Source: a virus
IMG/VR virus record: IMGVR_UViG_3300045988_028789
Location: 1 to 5,297 of that record
Strand: one strand, 5' to 3'
DNA: 5,297 nucleotides
This document shows, piece by piece, positions 1-5,297 of the stretch; position 1 is the first letter of the stretch; the number at the start of each line of letters is the position of its first letter. The notes beneath the pieces were generated by a model. The model saw only the letters and a list, made by a program, of their open reading frames with translations. It ran no database searches and was not told the DNA's origin. Both the position numbers and the translations under genes were made by a program.

Positions 1-55
1 AGCCAAAGCTATCGTAGAAGAAATCTACAAACTCAAGGCCGAAAGAATTGAAAAG
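1..55. repeat. Terminal redundancy from circular genome linearisation (copy 1 of 2), identical to 5243..5297
   Basis: Direct comparison: 1..55 (agccaaagctatcgtagaagaaatctacaaactcaaggccgaaagaattgaaaag) is identical to 5243..5297. This implies a circular 5242-nt unit genome. Confidence 0.9.
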
Positions 56-79
56 GAGATGAGCATATGGCATTCATAA
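56..79 (+). CDS. C-terminal continuation of the wrap-spanning small ORF (same gene as 5112..5297; the residues encoded in 1..55 duplicate 5243..5297)
   Basis: Same reading frame (codons gcc 2..4 through taa 77..79). It is listed separately only because the window is a linearised circle. Confidence 0.3.
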   Translation, partial: EMSIWHS

Positions 80-189
80 GCGTGAAGGAGGTCAAGAACG
101 CCATCCGGATTATGATGGAAATTCTTGAAAAGCTTGACATGATTTATCATGCACTTCATGATAACAAGGAGGAAGAGAACGATGGCTAA
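67..189 (+). CDS. Small hypothetical protein, 40 aa (MAFISVKEVKNAIRIMMEILEKLDMIYHALHDNKEEENDG)
   Basis: ATG 67 is preceded by SD AAAGGAG (51..57) with a 9-nt spacer. The TAA stop at 187..189 overlaps the ATG 182 of the downstream basic-protein gene (ATGGCTAA), indicating translational coupling. It was not in the supplied track (below length cutoff). Confidence 0.4.
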   Translation: MAFISVKEVKNAIRIMMEILEKLDMIYHALHDNKEEENDG

Positions 190-301
190 GAGAGTCAAGA
201 TGAGTACCAACAAAGACAAAAAGGTCTTTACCCAGACGGCGAAGAAAACCAAGGCCGTCAACGTAAGCCCGAAAAACATGCGCGGAGGAACGAGACTGTA
301 A
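182..301 (+). CDS. Small highly basic DNA-binding protein, 39 aa (MAKRVKMSTNKDKKVFTQTAKKTKAVNVSPKNMRGGTRL); analogue of phiX174 J / gokushovirus ORF8
   Basis: ATG 182 is preceded by SD AAGGAGG (166..172) with a 9-nt spacer. Eleven of 39 residues are K/R and there are no acidic clusters. The size, composition and position upstream of the scaffold/capsid genes fit the small basic ssDNA-packaging protein of Microviridae. TAA 299..301 overlaps the next ATG (TAATG). It was missed by the ORF track. Confidence 0.6.
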   Translation: MAKRVKMSTNKDKKVFTQTAKKTKAVNVSPKNMRGGTRL

Positions 302-543
302 TGCTTAAAAAATATTATGCAATTTACGACAAAGTGGCCAAGAGCTACAGCGGACTCTTCGAACAGCAGAACGACGCAGTCGCAAGCAGACTCTTTGAGA
401 GCCAGCAGAAGAACAAAGACAGCTTTATCAACGTGAAGCCGGAAGACTTCCAGCTGTGCTACATCTGCACCATGGATGACGAAACCGGCAAAATCATCGA
501 TAACACCAACATGTGCGTATGTGAGGGCAAGCCCAATGAGTGA
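301..543 (+). CDS. Hypothetical 80-aa protein with a C-terminal Cys4 cluster (CYIC-x15-CVC), a putative zinc-binding knuckle; occupies the position where gokushoviruses often carry VP5 (inference)
   Basis: ORF in track. ATG 301 overlaps the upstream stop (TAATG), with a GGAGG-like SD at 285..289. TGA 541..543 overlaps the ATG 536 of the VP3-like gene (ATGAGTGA). Four cysteines lie at residues 53, 56, 72 and 74. Confidence 0.55.
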   Translation: MLKKYYAIYDKVAKSYSGLFEQQNDAVASRLFESQQKNKDSFINVKPEDFQLCYICTMDDETGKIIDNTNMCVCEGKPNE

Positions 544-1012
544 GTTTCGAAGCGCGTACAGCGGACAGGTAAGGCATACGAGCCTGACCGGCAACGGCCA
601 CGAGCCGGAATATGAGTACAAGGTAACGGACGAAGGCCGGGAACTGGTAAAAACCGGCGAAACAGACGTCTATGCACTCATTCAGAGCCGTCTGGATGAA
701 ACCAAAATCGAAAACATCATCAAACGAGCAACATACGACCCGAATGCGCTGGGCAGTCAGGACTGGCAGACCAGCGAGACGATGACCGATATTTCGGAAG
801 CGCCGACAAACTACCACGAGTGGTATGGGCGTATCAAAGACGCGGAAGCGGAGTTTGACAAGCTGCCCATCGAAGTCAAAAACAAGTGGGACAACGATGT
901 GGAAAAATACATCATGGCCTATGGAACCCAAGAGTGGGCAGACAAAATGGGCGTAGCAAAACAGAAAGCCGAAGCAGAAAAACCGGCTGAAAAAAGTGAG
1001 GTGAAAGAATGA
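536..1012 (+). CDS. Internal scaffolding protein, gokushovirus VP3-like (158 aa from ATG 536; alternative upstream ATG 476 gives 178 aa)
   Basis: The N-terminus MSEFRSAYSG and the C-terminal block FDKLPIEVKNKWDNDVEKYIMAY resemble conserved segments of Chlamydia-phage-type VP3 scaffold proteins (recalled from family knowledge, not searched). A start at 536 gives an 8-nt overlap with the upstream gene instead of 68 nt. TGA 1010..1012 overlaps the ATG 1009 of VP1 (ATGA). Confidence 0.75.
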   Translation: MSEFRSAYSGQVRHTSLTGNGHEPEYEYKVTDEGRELVKTGETDVYALIQSRLDETKIENIIKRATYDPNALGSQDWQTSETMTDISEAPTNYHEWYGRIKDAEAEFDKLPIEVKNKWDNDVEKYIMAYGTQEWADKMGVAKQKAEAEKPAEKSEVKE

Positions 1013-2601
1013 ACCGCAACAGTGAATACAACTTTGCGCAAAATCCGCAGGTCGGAGTAAGCCGCAGCCGATTCCAGCGCAACAGCGACAGCAAAACGAC
1101 CTTCAACACGGGCGACCTCATCCCTGTCTATCTAGACGAGGTGCTACCGGGTGATACGCACCAAGTCGATGTTGCCTGTGTAATGCGAATGGCGACACCC
1201 ATCTTCCCGGTGATGGACAACGCCTTTTGCGACTTCTACTTCTTCTTCGTACCTAACCGCTTGCTCTGGGAACATTGGAAGGAGTTTATGGGCGAGAACA
1301 AGGAAACCGCATGGACACCTAAGACAGAGTACAGTGTGCCGCAGGTAACGGCACCGAAAGGCGGATGGGAAGAAGGTACGCTAGCTGACTATCTGGGGCT
1401 GCCTACCAAAGTGGAAGGTATCAGCGTGAGCGCACTGCCAGGCAGAGCCTATGGCCTTATCTACAACGAATGGTTTAGAAATCAAAACGTGACACAGCCG
1501 ACACTTGTAGAAGTGACGGATGCAACCACGACCGGCAAAAACGATGGCAGCGCTACCAATGACAGCGCTATCACACTAGCAAAGCCTCTCAAGGCAGCGA
1601 AGGTGTTTGACTACTACACCGGAGCTTTACCGGAGCCGCAGAAAGGCGAGCCGATTCAGCTTCCTCTGACAGGAGCTGCACCGATAAAGGCATACAGCGA
1701 AAAAGAGCTGACAAACATAAGAGACTCGTTTATGTGGATAGCAACAGCGTCGCCCATCGAGGTAGCAAACGTGGACAAAAACGGAACAAAAGCAAACGGT
1801 CTGCCGACCAACACATACATGGGTGCAGACCTGAGCGCAGTAACTTCCGCAACTATCAACCAGCTCCGACAGGCATTCCAAATCCAGAAACTTCTGGAAA
1901 AAGACGCACGCGGCGGCACGAGATACCGTGAAGTGCTGCGTGAACACTTCGGGGTTATTTCTCCTGACTCTCGTATGCAGATTCCAGAATATCTGGGCGG
2001 CTACAGACTGCCTATCAACGTATCTCAGGTTATCCAAACCTCTTCGACCGACGGCACGAGTCCGCTGGGCAACACAGCAGCGTTGAGTGTAACCACCATG
2101 AACAAACCTATGTTTACAAAGTCCTTTACTGAGCATGGTTTCATTATGGGTCTGGCAGTCGTCCGTACCGACCAGACCTATCAGCAGGGTATCGAGCGCA
2201 TGTGGAGCCGCAAAGGCCGATATGACTACTATTGGCCTGTGCTGGCAAACATCGGCGAACAAGCAATTTTGAACAAAGAACTCTATGCACAGGGCAGCGC
2301 AAAGGACGAAGAGGCCTTTGGCTACCAAGAGGCTTGGGCGGACTACCGCTACAAGCCCTCAAAGGTAACAGGCCTTTTCAGAAGCAATGCACAGCAGAGC
2401 TTGGACGCATGGCACTACGCACAGGACTACGACGCACTTCCCACGCTAAGTACGGCGTGGATGGAGCAGACCGATACCGAAATGAAGAGAACGCTGGCGG
2501 TGCAGAATCAGCCAGACTTCATCGCGGACTTCTACTTTATGAACAAAACAACCAGATGTATGCCGGTATACAGCATTCCCGGCCTCATCGACCATCACTA
2601 A
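1009..2601 (+). CDS. Major capsid protein VP1 (Microviridae F-protein family), 530 aa
   Basis: The N-terminal region [33 protein letters not shown]...[29 protein letters not shown] matches the hallmark conserved N-terminal block of gokushovirus VP1 / phiX174 F. The size is typical (530 aa). An SD-like GAGGTGA lies upstream. It is the largest ORF and is followed by an intrinsic terminator. Confidence 0.95.
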
Positions 2602-2612
2602 GGAAAGGAGAC

Positions 2613-2640
2613 AGCCGGGGACAAGACCCCGGCTATTTTT
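2613..2640 (+). terminator. Rho-independent terminator hairpin between VP1 and VP2 (8-bp stem AGCCGGGG / CCCCGGCT, 6-nt loop ACAAGA, then A + T5)
   Basis: Seen directly: 2613..2620 is the reverse complement of 2627..2634, followed by ATTTTT (2635..2640). It sits 12 nt after the VP1 stop. An SD-like AAGGAAAGGAG (2600..2610) lies immediately 5' of the stem. Confidence 0.6.
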
Positions 2641-2644
2641 GAAA

Positions 2645-3499
2645 ATGGTATTACCAGCCTTTTTAGGAGCCTTAGAAACAGGCACGAAAATACTGGGCGG
2701 CGTAAGCGGTCTTATAAGCGCCGGAACAGGCATCTACAACGCACTCAAAGGCACATCAGGTAGCGGAGCAACAAGCTCAAGCGGATACCAAACAAGTCAA
2801 GGGGCAAGCGGTTCGACCATGACCGGAGAAAGCGGGGTAAACGTAGACCAAACAAAAGACCTCGCAAAATACTTCCTTGGTCAAAGTCAGCAAGCACAAG
2901 GGATGCAGAGCTTGCAAAACAACAAAAACTCTCTCATGGCACTGGGATTAAACACTCTGGGAGCTATCCAGCAGGGCGTTTACAATCGTATCCAGCAAGA
3001 CGCAGCAATGTCCTACAACTCCGCAGAGGCAGCAGCTAACAGAGCATGGCAGGAGCGAATGAGTAACACAAGCTATCAAAGGACAATGGCCGACATGGAA
3101 AAAGCGGGACTTAATCCCATACTGGCCTACGCACAAGGCGGCGCAAGCACTCCGGGAGGAGCACAAGGAAGCATCGGCCAAAGCAGCATAAGCGCACCAA
3201 GCGTTGGAACGCAGTCGGCAAGTATGCCGACAATCTCCGGTACAATGGCAAACTATAGCCGCCAAAAGGCGGAAAGCTGGTCGTGGACAGACTCGCACGG
3301 AGAGCAGCACAGCAGCGGCTACAACAGCTATCAAACAGATTTCCCGGATTTAACGCCTTGGCTCAATCAAAACAAAAACAGCGGCGAAAAAGCCGGAAAT
3401 AACACGGTGGACGCGCTAAGCGGAGCTGACCACAAAGCAAGAAGCGGCAAAGTGCCAAATCTTAATCCGATGAACAAATATATTAACGGAGGCAAATAA
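2645..3499 (+). CDS. Minor capsid / DNA pilot protein VP2 (phiX174 H analogue), about 284 aa from ATG 2645 (the track uses TTG 2639)
   Basis: Composition is typical of gokushovirus VP2: a hydrophobic N-terminus ([27 protein letters not shown]), a Gly/Ser/Gln-rich low-complexity centre and a C-terminal [12 protein letters not shown]-type segment. It lies between VP1 and VP4. TAA 3497..3499 overlaps the ATG 3499 of VP4 (TAATG). Confidence 0.75.
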
Positions 3500-4521
3500 T
3501 GAGTTGCGAACGACCACTTATCCGCGTATACAATCCGAATGACCACAACATAACAGGGTCAATAATGACCTTAGAAAAGTACAGAGAAAGAACGCACAAT
3601 CCAACAGCAACTTATGAGAGCATCGCATACAGACCAGACGTAATGCTACTACCGTGCGGAAAATGTTTGGGATGCAGACTCAGACAGCGGCAAGATTGGG
3701 AAACGCGAATGCTGATGGAGTCAAAAACACTAACTCCAGTATGGTTTTTAACTCTAACATGGAATCAAGAATATGTGCCCGGAATGATAAGAGCAACAGG
3801 CGAACTTATACGTGGAGCAGTACACCAGTGGACAACGGGAGACGCGCCAGAAGTTGTGCAAATCCTATTGCAAAAGGACATGGTACTTTTTAACAAGAGG
3901 CTCCGAAAAAAGCAAGAAATGTCCGATAAATGGGGTACAGACCTCAGATATTTTTATTGCGGCGAATACGGCGAAACCACAGGCAGACCGCATCACCATG
4001 CAATCTATTATGGGTTAGAAATACCAGACCTCAAGAAAAAAAGAGGCAATAATCCATACTTTGAGAGCGAAACAATAGATAGAATCTGGGGAATGGGCAA
4101 TGTCATCATTGCAGAAGCATCACCGGAAACAATGGCGTATGTAGCGGGATATGTGACAAAAAAAGCCTACGGCAACGACACAAAACGATACAATGAACTA
4201 GGACTACCAGCGCCTTACTGCTGTATGTCACGAAATCCGGGCCTAGGATACGACTACTACCAAGAGCACAAAGAGCAAATGTACAAAGACGATGGGCTAT
4301 ATTTTAACGGCAAAAAAAGGCCCATTCCAAGGTACTTTGACAAAATGCAAGAAACTGAAAATCCCAAAAGGTTATGGGAAATCAAAGAAAAAAGGCAATC
4401 AAGTGCAATAAATGCACTTAAAGTCAAAATGTCAAACACAGACGTAACCATCGAAGAGCAAGGAAAAATTAAGGAAAAGAATCTCAGAGAACGCTTTAGT
4501 AAAGCAAGGGGGATTCTCTAA
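3499..4521 (+). CDS. Rolling-circle replication initiation protein VP4 (phiX174 gene A analogue; HUH superfamily endonuclease), 340 aa
   Basis: All three rolling-circle Rep motifs are present: motif I FLTLTW (nt 3745..3762), motif II HHHAIYYG (HHH at nt 3991..3999) and motif III with paired catalytic tyrosines YVAGYVTKK (nt 4138..4164; compare phiX174 A YVAKYVNKK). There is also an N-terminal CGKCLGCR Cys cluster. SD GGAGG lies at 3488..3492 with a 6-nt spacer. Confidence 0.93.
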   Translation: MSCERPLIRVYNPNDHNITGSIMTLEKYRERTHNPTATYESIAYRPDVMLLPCGKCLGCRLRQRQDWETRMLMESKTLTPVWFLTLTWNQEYVPGMIRATGELIRGAVHQWTTGDAPEVVQILLQKDMVLFNKRLRKKQEMSDKWGTDLRYFYCGEYGETTGRPHHHAIYYGLEIPDLKKKRGNNPYFESETIDRIWGMGNVIIAEASPETMAYVAGYVTKKAYGNDTKRYNELGLPAPYCCMSRNPGLGYDYYQEHKEQMYKDDGLYFNGKKRPIPRYFDKMQETENPKRLWEIKEKRQSSAINALKVKMSNTDVTIEEQGKIKEKNLRERFSKARGIL

Positions 4522-4530
4522 ATGGTGTCA

Positions 4531-4566
4531 GTGGGCCTAATCCTATCAAGAAACGATTAGGCCCAC
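4531..4566 (+). other. Perfect 12-bp stem-loop (GTGGGCCTAATC / GATTAGGCCCAC, 12-nt loop) 10 nt after the VP4 stop
   Basis: 4531..4542 is the exact reverse complement of 4555..4566. It is not followed by a T-run, so it may be an ssDNA structural element or origin/primosome-type hairpin rather than a canonical terminator. Confidence 0.5.
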
Positions 4567-4618
4567 ACCTAAAATTCATAGTCATTCACGGCTAAACAAA
4601 TCATCACTCATAAAAGTG

Positions 4619-4666
4619 AGGGGTCTCCTACGGGAGACCCCTTTCGTCTGCGCCCCTAGTAGGGGC
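4619..4666 (+). other. Two adjacent GC-rich hairpins (10-bp stem AGGGGTCTCC/GGAGACCCCT with a UACG-type tetraloop; 6-bp stem GCCCCT/AGGGGC with a 3-nt loop)
   Basis: 4619..4628 pairs with 4633..4642, and 4652..4657 pairs with 4661..4666. CTG trinucleotides sit between and after the hairpins (4647..4649, 4667..4669). They could be a weak terminator (CCCCTTTCG) or a complementary-strand origin-like structure. Confidence 0.45.
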
Positions 4667-4703
4667 TGCCGAGGTCACGAAGCGAATCATAAGTTCAATC
4701 ACA

Positions 4704-4754
4704 GTACACGCGCACGCACGCACGCGCGAAACGCGCACGCACGCACGCACGCAT
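4704..4754. repeat. Perfectly alternating purine/pyrimidine tract, (CACG)n/(CGCG)n tetranucleotide repeats in two 22-25-nt arms around GCGCG-AAA-CGCGC
   Basis: Seen directly: gtacacgcgcacgcacgcacgcgcg aaa cgcgcacgcacgcacgcacgcat. Alternation is unbroken over 4704..4728 and 4732..4754. It has Z-DNA-forming potential and is a simple-sequence (slippage-prone) repeat. Confidence 0.8.
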
Positions 4755-4815
4755 TCTATTATTTTATTCATTACTTGTTGTAGTCGTAGTAGTAGTGTAT
4801 GTGGAAAAGTTGAAT

Positions 4816-4846
4816 GTGATAATAATTCTTCGTTATCACGTGATAA
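4816..4846. promoter_or_regulatory. 14-bp perfect palindrome TTATCACGTGATAA (4833..4846) plus an upstream third half-site GTGATAA (4816..4822); candidate dimeric protein-binding operator
   Basis: TTATCACGTGATAA is its own reverse complement. GTGATAA at 4816..4822 is also the reverse complement of TTATCAC (4833..4839) and gives an alternative 7-bp stem with a 10-nt loop. Confidence 0.5.
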
Positions 4847-4874
4847 TTAACAACATTTCTCAGTTGAAAGTTTT

Positions 4875-4965
4875 GTTGAAAACTTGTGGAAGATGTTGAA
4901 ATATAGCAAGTTGCACAAAATCCTTTGTGCATATTGTTGTTGAAAACTTGTGGAAAGTGTTGAAA
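4875..4965. repeat. 27-bp direct repeat GTTGAAAACTTGTGGAARRTGTTGAAA (4875..4901 and 4939..4965; 25/27 identical, 64-bp period) with additional GTTGAAA / GTGGAAA reiterations (4801, 4864, 4968); iteron-like
   Basis: Seen directly in an AT-rich block. A 7-bp hairpin GCACAAA/TTTGTGC (4913..4930) lies between the two copies. Confidence 0.7.
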
Positions 4966-5000
4966 ATGTGGAAAACTCAGGAACCAGTTAGTATAAGCAA

Positions 5001-5077
5001 TCTCGCCTGCGGGCGAGAAACCGACGCCTTGCCCAAAATTGCTGCGCAACCTTGGGCAAAACGCCGGTTGTTTTTTT
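5001..5077 (+). terminator. GC hairpins (TCTCGCC/GGCGAGA 5001..5018; TTGCCCAA/TTGGGCAA 5029..5059 with an internal mini-hairpin) followed by a T-rich run TTGTTTTTTT (5068..5077); terminator-like element closing the non-coding region
   Basis: The reverse-complement arms were verified by eye. A T7 run follows 8 nt after the last stem. It would terminate read-through from VP4 before the promoter of the gene chain. The spacing to the T-run is slightly long for a canonical intrinsic terminator. Confidence 0.4.
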
Positions 5078-5095
5078 ACAGAAAAGCATTATAAT
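5068..5095 (+). promoter_or_regulatory. Sigma70-like promoter candidate: -35 TTGTTT (5068..5073), 16-nt spacer, -10 TATAAT (5090..5095)
   Basis: The -10 hexamer is a perfect consensus. The -35 matches 3/6 (TTGxxx). It sits about 15-25 nt upstream of the SD-like AAGGTGGTG and the first ORF of the + strand gene chain, right after a terminator-like element. Confidence 0.35.
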
Positions 5096-5111
5096 AGACT
5101 ATAGAAAGGTG

Positions 5112-5297
5112 GTGTTTCAAATAACAGAAGCACGAAGAAAACAACTCAACACCAGCGTAATAAAGCCGTCAGAGCAAGAAGATTTCGAATACCTCATCAA
5201 AAAACTTTACAGAGCGCTCAATCGAGCATATACTGTAGAAGAAGCCAAAGCTATCGTAGAAGAAATCTACAAACTCAAGGCCGAAAGAATTGAAAAG
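5112..5297 (+). CDS. Small hypothetical protein spanning the linearisation point (continues at 1..79 by wrap; roughly 65-72 aa depending on start), helical and charged, unknown function
   Basis: The frame is open from 4992 through the wrap to a TAA at 77..79. It contains no ATG. Candidate starts are GTG 5109/5112, or a non-canonical in-frame ATA 5121 placed 6 nt after an SD-like AAGGTGGTG (5106..5114). The translation (..EARRKQLNTSVIKPSEQEDFEYLIKKLYRALNRAYTVEEAKAIVEEIYKLKAERIEKEMSIWHS) looks protein-like. Its stop overlaps the ATG of the next ORF by 13 nt, a coupling pattern. It lies just downstream of the candidate promoter. Confidence 0.3.
   Translation, partial: MFQITEARRKQLNTSVIKPSEQEDFEYLIKKLYRALNRAYTVEEAKAIVEEIYKLKAERIEK
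5243..5297. repeat. Terminal redundancy (copy 2 of 2), identical to 1..55
   Basis: Exact 55/55 identity with the window start. It is consistent with a circular ssDNA phage genome assembled with overlapping ends. Confidence 0.9.

Follow-up and report, generated by a model that had tools for sequence, protein, structure and literature searches.

In bacterial chromosomal origins, the basal unwinding system (BUS) begins with DnaA boxes, which are followed by a spacer of ~4 bp, three or more DnaA-trios and an AT-rich stretch (PMC8287927, PMC6669920, PMC8235120, PMC7561715). The DnaA-trio is a single-strand binding motif of DnaA, NAN, with the consensus 3′-GAT-5′ (PMC8287927, PMC6669920). The spacer between box and trios is GC-rich (PMC8287927, PMC8235120), and in C. 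difficile the complement of the trios reads TAGTAGTAATAGTAGTAG (PMC7561715). Here we analyse a gokushovirus genome from IMG/VR (record IMGVR_UViG_3300045988_028789, positions 1 to 5297; the whole 5297-nt stretch is called the window) in which a segment of the non-coding region downstream of the gene for VP4, the rolling-circle Rep protein, shows the same organization. We judge, with a probability of roughly 0.85, that this segment, the core at 4755–4975, is a mimic of a DnaA-type origin. The best reading of its sequence is a copy or mimic of the dnaA–dnaN half (‘incC’) of the BUS of a Firmicute oriC. It also seems rather probable that the core would work as a host-DnaA-dependent origin, with DnaA-fired synthesis on the replicative form alongside VP4-driven rolling-circle replication.

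Organization of the core

The core runs from AT-rich DNA through the trios into three groups of DnaA boxes. The AT-rich stretch (4755–4772; the GC content of 4750–4799 is 30%) is followed by an extension, ACTTGTTG (4773–4780, + strand), that is in register with the trios, and then by the DnaA-trio array TAG TCG TAG TAG TAG (4781–4795, + strand), where TAG is the 3′-GAT-5′ consensus read 5′ to 3′. Three perfect trios (TAG TAG TAG, 4787–4795) adjoin the box, and a further TAG lies at 4781–4783. A 4-nt spacer, TGTA (4796–4799), which is GGGC or GGAG in most relatives and in bacteria, leads to the tandem DnaA boxes on the − strand (4800–4817). These are TGTGGAAAA at 4800–4808, the complement of which, TTTTCCACA, has one mismatch to TTATCCACA, and then the degenerate AGTTGAATG. 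A spacer of ~45 nt separates the tandem boxes from box cluster 2 (4862–4902, − strand), which comprises AGTTGAAAG (4862–4870), TGTTGAAAA (4874–4882), TGTGGAAGA (4885–4893) and TGTTGAAAT (4894–4902). Box cluster 3 (4938–4975, − strand) comprises TGTTGAAAA (4938–4946), TGTGGAAAG (4949–4957), TGTTGAAAA again (4958–4966) and TGTGGAAAA (4967–4975), with box starts spaced by 11, 9 and 9 nt. Between clusters 2 and 3 lies a palindrome, TGCACAAA-n4-TTTGTGCA (GCACAAA; 4912–4931), which is conserved and phage-specific; at this position the bacterial origins carry a head-to-head box pair. The extension ACTTGTTG is phage-specific as well: it is present in 13/13 phages and at least 95% conserved over 129 cores, and is absent from bacterial origins.

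In all, the core holds ten TGTGGAAA/TGTTGAAA DnaA boxes, nine of which are 9-mers, all in the same orientation. The repeat consensus over 123 copies is T-G-T-(T 78%, G 22%)-G-A-A-A-A; its complement is TTTTCCACA or TTTTCAACA, and some relatives carry the perfect TGTGGATAA at the same positions. Of the DnaA box, TTATCCACA is the high-affinity form and TTWTNCACA the relaxed form. The relaxed form, with at most one mismatch, gives 24 matches in the window, eight of them in 4755–4985, all in one orientation. The shorter GTKGAAA occurs nine times in the window against 1.56 expected, and eight copies fall at 4801–4974, all on the + strand. The AT-rich iteron block described in an earlier, sequence-only reading of this DNA is therefore present, with 28–34% GC at 4750–4975 and GTKGAAA repeats on the + strand. 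The 14-bp palindrome that this reading placed in the block, TTATCACGTGATAA, is found at 4833–4846; it is not conserved in relatives, and a role as a conserved operator was rejected for that reason.

The published search rule for a BUS combines a box having at most two mismatches to TTATCCACA with a distance of 0–16 bp to the trios (PMC8287927), the trios being at least three in succession on the strand that reads 5′-trios-spacer-TGTGGATAA-3′. In the window the rule finds the box TTTTCCACA, with one mismatch, 4 nt from three consecutive trios on that strand; it also finds a hit in 4% of shuffled genomes. The window has a single copy of the exact string GTAGTAGTAG-TGTA-TGTGGAAAA, and no shuffle contains it. 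The 4-nt length of the spacer agrees with bacterial origins, an AT-rich region lies distal to the trios, and further DnaA boxes lie in the same region. The location differs: the core sits between VP4 and small open reading frames (ORFs) and not beside dnaA or dnaN, and we therefore take it as a mimic or captured copy and not as a chromosomal origin.

Comparison with chromosomal origins

We derived a signature from the phage family, GTAGTARTAG-N5-GTKGAAAWGTTGAW (29 nt, 25 specified bases), and compared it with one genome per species from 185 579 bacterial and archaeal species. The signature matches 76 bacterial loci. At 55 of these it lies between dnaA and dnaN, and the genes are always on the strand opposite the TAG strand (55/55). 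At 18 more loci either dnaA or dnaN is adjacent, mostly because the locus is cut off, which brings the matches beside dnaA or dnaN to 73/76. The tandem box pair next to the trios is the same in the 76 bacterial dnaA–dnaN regions. An integration site or prophage as the source of the bacterial matches was rejected, since none of the 76 loci carries VP1 or VP4 near the signature. In the complete chromosome of Neomoorella carbonis, the signature occupies 1373–1401, between DnaA (1–1329) and DnaN (1446–2597), and oriC reads TAGTAGTCGTAGTAATAG-agcc-TGTGGAAATGTTGATAG; DnaA, DnaN and RecF of this chromosome were confirmed by Pfam. Taken with the other dnaA–dnaN loci, the Neomoorella origin shows that the phage signature corresponds to the module with which genuine chromosomal origins are unwound.

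The match is not confined to the signature, and the architecture of the core is that of a group of bacterial origins. The 24 origins in this group, mainly from Ruminococcus, Oscillospiraceae and ‘Eubacteriales’ gut metagenome-assembled genomes, are built from TGTTGAAA(A/G) in the same orientation. Phages and origins have a common layout: the tandem pair occupies 0–20, one cluster begins at +60 after a gap of ~45 nt, and a further cluster lies at roughly +120 to +170. Boxes number 9.0 versus 8.6 per 230 nt in the comparison of phages with bacterial origins, and at equal distance from the trios the AT-rich stretch has an AT content of 0.75 in the phages and 0.80 in the bacterial origins. The phage cores and the 24 origins are 65–71% identical over ~200 nt, with E values from 1e-13 to 1e-19, and this similarity between phage and origin is about equal to that between one phage and another.

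The variant box TGTTGAAA(A/G), with the complement TTTTCAACA, dominates over TTATCCACA in the Ruminococcus, Oscillospiraceae and Eubacteriales origins; the spacers with the variant include L138, L141, L153, L155, L156, L159, L181, L186, L190 and L205, among others. From its sequence and distribution, TTTTCAACA looks like a lineage-specific variant of the DnaA box. Because the origins of Oscillospirales use the same TGTTGAAA variant as the phage, bacteria of this order (Ruminococcus/Oscillospiraceae) are the likely hosts.

Conservation and orientation of the cassette

A sensitive BLAST search with 4500–5130 returned 49 gokushovirus records, compared with 15 for a megablast of the whole genome, and the block common to the relatives spans ~4707–4980. 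The 12 relatives found by BLAST form an unbiased sample. In these the core is collinear and nearly gap-free, and all 12 retain the trios, their 4-nt distance from the first box and the AT-rich element; the same features persist through the inversions described below. The core is ~72% identical whether the VP4 of the relative is 97% or 44% identical to that of the window. Within the core, boxes and trios are at least 90–95% conserved and the spacers 40–60%. Repeats that are near-invariant between freely varying spacers indicate a cis-acting element read by a factor that is unchanged between these phages.

More than 160 gut gokushoviruses retain the cassette. The signature is present in at least 120 IMG/VR contigs, and 119 of the matches listed carry both VP1 and VP4. 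In GenBank, 44 gokushoviruses from the gut of human, monkey, pig, dog, mink and raccoon match the core, which their records leave unannotated or annotate wrongly. A chimeric assembly, which the sequence-only reading had allowed for, does not account for the region: more than 160 assemblies made independently show it at one and the same position, with phage-specific features that are absent from bacteria. The PLSDB plasmids contain no match to the core, and plasmid relatives were accordingly set aside within that collection. The trio-plus-box module is missing from the cultured gokushoviruses phiMH2K, Chp2 and SpV4, which rules out a general gokushovirus feature.

Origin-like sequences were also seen on other viral contigs. 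Among 12 large IMG/VR viral contigs (L209–L220, 8.8–162 kb), most combine an AT-rich stretch, TAG trios, GGGC, tandem TGTGGATAA and further box clusters, and the stretches examined contain no dnaA, dnaN or microvirus genes. Mimicry of host origins may thus extend beyond this gokushovirus clade to double-stranded DNA phages or phage–plasmids. A 23.6-kb IMG/VR contig (L067) has a very box-rich, origin-like array of AGTTGAAAA/TGTTGAAAA/GGTTGAAAA, and no VP1, VP4, dnaA or dnaN was found in the 2313 nt examined.

The cassette is independent of orientation and position. The trio strand is the coding, presumably packaged, strand in 116 of the 119 IMG/VR phages among the matches listed. In L016, L080, L100, MG945447 (L224) and KT264801 (L225), the ~230-nt core is inverted and the flanks remain in gene orientation. 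In KT264784 (L226, 2582–2797), the core is inverted and lies between VP2 and VP4, in a genome without hairpin 1 and the alternating tract that flank it in the window. Boxes and trios are intact in every inverted or moved cassette. A core that is kept in either orientation and at another site would act as an autonomous element on duplex DNA, presumably the double-stranded replicative form, and not as a strand-specific signal on single-stranded DNA (ssDNA) or as a transcript. Quasi-palindromic sequences of the CGCGCAC type flank the inverted segment and may mediate the inversion.

Proposed function and alternative explanations

DnaA binding, unwinding and helicase loading at the cassette are what these features lead us to expect. 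Host DnaA would occupy the box array on the double-stranded replicative form. A DnaA-ATP filament would load from the trio-proximal boxes onto the TAG trios and open the adjacent AT-rich DNA; opening at 4755–4795 would be expected to depend on TAGTAGTAG and its polarity. The opened DNA would provide the entry point for the helicase-loading and priming machinery of the host, and DnaA-triggered, theta-type synthesis of the replicative form would proceed beside the rolling-circle Rep VP4.

Several points weigh against an origin mimic of this kind. The repeat TGTTGAAA (complement TTTTCAACA) departs from the classic box at its conserved C6, and it is read as a DnaA box solely because of its position in bacterial origins; the use of TTTTCAACA in the origins of the presumed hosts answers this objection. 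Firmicute origins are usually bipartite and the phage has the incC-like half only, and the bipartite origin of C. difficile needs both halves for melting in vitro (PMC7561715). The window spacer TGTA is not GC-rich, and the second tandem box is degenerate, with five mismatches. Reverse-oriented boxes number 0.1 per origin in the phages and 1.6 in the bacteria. The trios and the first box are part of the pattern by which the IMG/VR and bacterial sets were picked, so that conservation there is partly by construction. A phage that replicates by rolling circle has no obvious need of a theta origin, and DnaA binding and unwinding are steps that we infer from the sequence.

Of the other explanations, the one that survives best, although we hold it unlikely, is a DnaA sink or sensor, in which the cassette would bind DnaA without firing. 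Many copies of the replicative form with about ten boxes each would titrate DnaA, and the initiation of the host chromosome would be shut off or delayed, or phage gene expression would be coupled to the level of DnaA. The box array is indeed the best conserved feature, and independence of orientation and position suits a pure binding site equally well. There is also a precedent, since plasmids with the incC region of B. subtilis inhibit chromosomal initiation, an effect termed ‘partial incompatibility’ (PMC6669920). A sink, however, requires boxes only, whereas the trios, the 4-nt spacing and the AT-rich element are also kept, as an unwinding-competent module requires.

Less probable still is a single-strand origin, in which trios and boxes on the packaged + strand would recruit DnaA and lead to assembly of a helicase–primase and conversion of ssDNA to the replicative form, much as the ABC primosome is assembled at a DnaA-box hairpin. 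On M13 ssDNA with a DnaA-box hairpin, priming is known to depend on DnaA (PMC6127211), and the trio strand is the coding strand in nearly all of the IMG/VR phages counted above. Inverted cassettes with intact motifs, however, mean that the packaged strand may carry either strand of the module. Moreover, no conserved hairpin provides a double-stranded box, and on the single strand the core shows less structure than the rest of the region: folding of the ssDNA compared with shuffles gives z scores of −5.7 and −4.5 for the flanks and only −2.0 for the core. The sequence-only reading had proposed folding of the + strand as a check and had named complementary-strand initiation among the possible roles of the region. 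The flanks fold far better than the shuffles, but a site of complementary-strand initiation on ssDNA in the iteron block is not supported, given the weak folding of the core and its retention in both orientations.

Iterons beside a Rep gene are common in rolling-circle replicons, and the extension ACTTGTTG and the GCACAAA palindrome are specific to the phages, but it is very improbable that the repeats are iterons bound by a phage protein (the Rep VP4 or a small DNA-binding protein), with a coincidental likeness to oriC or as passenger DNA captured from the host, because a signature of 25 specified bases has 76 bacterial matches, of which 73 adjoin dnaA or dnaN, because the iterons are unchanged while VP4 drops to 44% identity, and because passenger DNA would neither hold its boxes at >90% as spacers decay nor outlast inversion and relocation.

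Flanking modules

Hairpin 1 (4525–4566, + strand) lies directly downstream of VP4. It consists of an invariant GTGTC (4525–4529) and a stem formed by 4531–4542 with 4555–4566, and its loop starts with CTATCAAG (4543–4550). Across 104 distinct sequences, compensatory changes are seen in eight of the 12 stem pairs, and 88.5% of the cells are paired, compared with 24–44% when the partner is slid. The loop motif CTATCAAG is found in 130 of 132 phages. Hairpin 1 is a true conserved structure, and it stays in gene orientation where the core is inverted. Covariation, an invariant loop and a fixed orientation make it the best candidate for a strand-specific site, either a Rep nick site or a primase start. 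Many relatives (L005, L028, L033, L038, L040, L042 and L060) have additional copies of CTATCAAG(T/A)A in the stretch that separates hairpin 1 from the alternating tract, and in L005 (~1180–1215) the additional copy is again in a hairpin loop; multiple copies fit a protein recognition motif.

Firmicute primases start at 5′-CTA-3′. Rolling-circle nick sites of the phiX174/pC194 type have the core CTTG^ATA on the displaced strand, and the complement of the hairpin-1 loop, CTTGATAG, contains this core. As such a nick site, the loop would place CTTGATA on the non-coding strand, which is a misfit for a + strand origin. The + strand lacks CTTGAT in the window and in 102 of 107 relatives; the hexamer is present solely in the complement of the hairpin-1 loop. 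Among the 4096 hexamers it ranks 12th in depletion on the coding strand of 111 genomes (the window and 110 others, L013–L132), with 5 seen versus 60 expected; its complement is not depleted, and the coding strand of the cultured phiMH2K also has no CTTGAT. A second candidate for the + strand nick site of Rep, ACTTG|TTGTAG, which resembles CAACTTG^A of phiX174, was rejected since it travels with the cassette upon inversion.

Two GC-rich hairpins follow on the + strand at 4619–4642 and ~4650–4669. They are variable: similar hairpins occur in L004, L005 and L012, and they are absent in the closest relative, L001. Together with the stem of hairpin 1 at 4531–4566, they make up the three 5′ hairpins that the sequence-only reading had reported, all of which are present in the ssDNA fold.

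Next to the core lies the alternating purine/pyrimidine tract of that reading, (CG/CA)n, at 4704–4754. It is made up of two runs of 25 and 24 nt (4704–4728 and 4731–4754) with AA (4729–4730) between them, and is GC-rich, with strict alternation within the runs. Across the phages it is conserved as two GC-rich runs of ~20 nt: an alternating run of at least 20 nt is present in 103 of 130, where the control median is 8, and 92 of 117 phages have two adjacent runs. The fold energy of the runs is no better than that of alternation-preserving shuffles (median z −0.45). A selected hairpin was rejected on this result, which indicates that the alternation itself, as Z-DNA potential or a motif of the CGCRCG type, is the property under selection. 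By sequence criteria the tract is Z-DNA-prone; that it acts as a topological buffer beside the unwinding element is a guess.

The 3′ side of the core is bounded by a GC-rich module on the + strand (5001–5077; z −4.5), with a hairpin at 5001–5018, a long imperfect hairpin at 5019–5069 and a T7 run at 5071–5077, the hairpin and T-run having been correctly described before. Relatives carry one of two alternative structured modules at this position. The hairpin at 5019–5069 with its T-run fits a terminator by eye and by fold; the stem is long and imperfect, and a simple terminator scan did not list it on the + strand. In the window, the module looks like a terminator for read-through from VP4. It is followed by a candidate promoter of the sigma-70/A type (5068–5095, + strand), with TTGTTT, a 16-nt spacer and TATAAT at 5090–5095; relatives have TTGACA, 17 nt and TATAAT at the corresponding place. 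The promoter claimed earlier holds only in part. Its −10 element is perfect, the −35 element TTTACA proposed for it lies just 9 nt from the −10, the best alternative, TTGTTT, matches at three of six positions, and a consensus promoter scan made no call at 5068–5095. The role in transcription control suggested for the region is accordingly compatible with the terminator-like hairpin and weak promoter at the 3′ end, the promoter being only half convincing.

Genome context and coding capacity

The window is a single closed-circular gokushovirus genome of 5242 nt, in which 5243–5297 is an exact 55-nt repeat of 1–55. All genes are on the + strand: small ORFs, VP5 (301–543), VP3 (to 1012), VP1 (1009–2601), VP2 (2639–3499) and VP4 (3499–4521). 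The nearest GenBank relatives are the gut ‘Gokushovirus WZ-2015a’ and faecal Microviridae from pig, dog and human. VP4 stops at 4521 and the next conserved ORF starts at ~5089–5109, which leaves ~570–590 nt of non-coding DNA (~11% of 5242 nt). This length is unusual for Microviridae generally, as the sequence-only reading had it, and normal within the clade, where the VP4–VP5 gaps of relatives are ~1.2 kb or longer.

The same reading saw no credible gene here, and our results agree. The four ORFs within 4522–~5108 match no Pfam or PHROG family. A stop-free frame across the core is not kept among relatives, frames of at least 80 codons spanning it in 0% on the trio strand and 12% on the other, and no conserved ORF spans the region. 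A hidden protein gene is thereby ruled out; the ‘hypothetical protein’ annotations that GenBank records place over the region are inconsistent between records. A known RNA or tRNA is ruled out as well: ARAGORN and Rfam (permissive settings for the window, gathering threshold for six relatives) find none apart from chance microRNA-like matches on the repeats. The region is, as had been proposed, functional and modular and not filler, with replication control as the main theme; nothing in our analysis supports the packaging role that was also suggested.

The small conserved ORF downstream (~5089–5242, continuing to ~78) has no ATG in the window genome. Its start options are GTG at 5109 or 5112, too near the ribosome-binding site, or ATT/ATA; the homologue in MG945423 (L004) has an ATG start ~75 nt downstream of a promoter. 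GATC-containing hexamers (GGATCG, TGGATC) are among the most depleted on the + strand of the 111 related phages, which suggests avoidance of a GATC-specific restriction or methylation system. The notion that the packaged strand is unusual, drawn from its A>T skew, was dropped because the cultured phiMH2K has the same skew.

Implications

A search of full-text open-access papers and preprints found none linking Microviridae or gokushoviruses with DnaA, DnaA boxes or oriC. If the origin mimic is real, a complete host-type unwinding module in an ssDNA phage with rolling-circle replication would give a minimal virus a new means of commandeering the initiator of its host. As a more tentative and rather doubtful extension, the phage might have two modes of replication, Rep-driven rolling circle and DnaA-fired theta replication of a minichromosome-like form from a captured oriC module. 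In that case copying of the replicative form would be tied to the cell cycle of the host, and the replicative form would be maintained in the manner of a plasmid, with no integrase. This would help to account for Microviridae being carried so long and so stably in the gut, and the origin mimic would directly read out host taxonomy, here Oscillospirales. The 220-bp cassette makes replication and persistence accessible to testing, and it offers a predictor of the host, from sequence, for abundant uncultured gut phages and a natural, compact and orientation-independent test case for the sufficiency of the unwinding module. The comparison also reveals the use of the variant box TTTTCAACA in origins of Oscillospiraceae and Ruminococcus.

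Comparison with known systems

The primosome assembly site of phiX174 and the primase site of G4 are strand-specific ssDNA hairpins recognised by PriA or primase. Like the region studied here, they are non-coding, structured elements of microviruses that recruit replication proteins of the host; the phage core differs in being unstructured, of duplex type and of DnaA type. In the P1 oriR, pSC101, F, RK2 and R6K origins, the replicon's own initiator acts on its own iterons, with one to a few DnaA boxes. These too are mobile replicons that recruit host DnaA through DnaA boxes, whereas the array of the phage core is wholly host-type, with DnaA-trios and no separate set of iterons.

In the A-site of the ABC primosome, as cited in PMC6127211 from Masai and Arai, an ssDNA hairpin makes one DnaA box double-stranded. 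The likeness is that DnaA starts synthesis on a single-stranded phage or plasmid template (PMC6127211). The phage core has no conserved box-bearing hairpin, the only box-containing stem, at 4847–4885, being unconserved in relatives within the weakly folded core, and the cassette occurs in either orientation.

The closest system is the BUS of oriC, as in the incC region of B. subtilis, with boxes 6/7, a GC spacer, trios and an AT-rich stretch. The phage core differs in that it lies by the rolling-circle Rep gene of a 5.2-kb ssDNA phage and not between dnaA and dnaN, has neither the partner half-origin upstream of dnaA nor reverse-oriented boxes, and adds ACTTGTTG, the GCACAAA palindrome and the flanking Z-DNA-prone tract. 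The signature is nevertheless common to the 76 bacterial loci and the ~200-nt architecture to the Ruminococcus/Oscillospiraceae origins, and the phage core has the same elements as the BUS in the same order, spacing and relative orientation.

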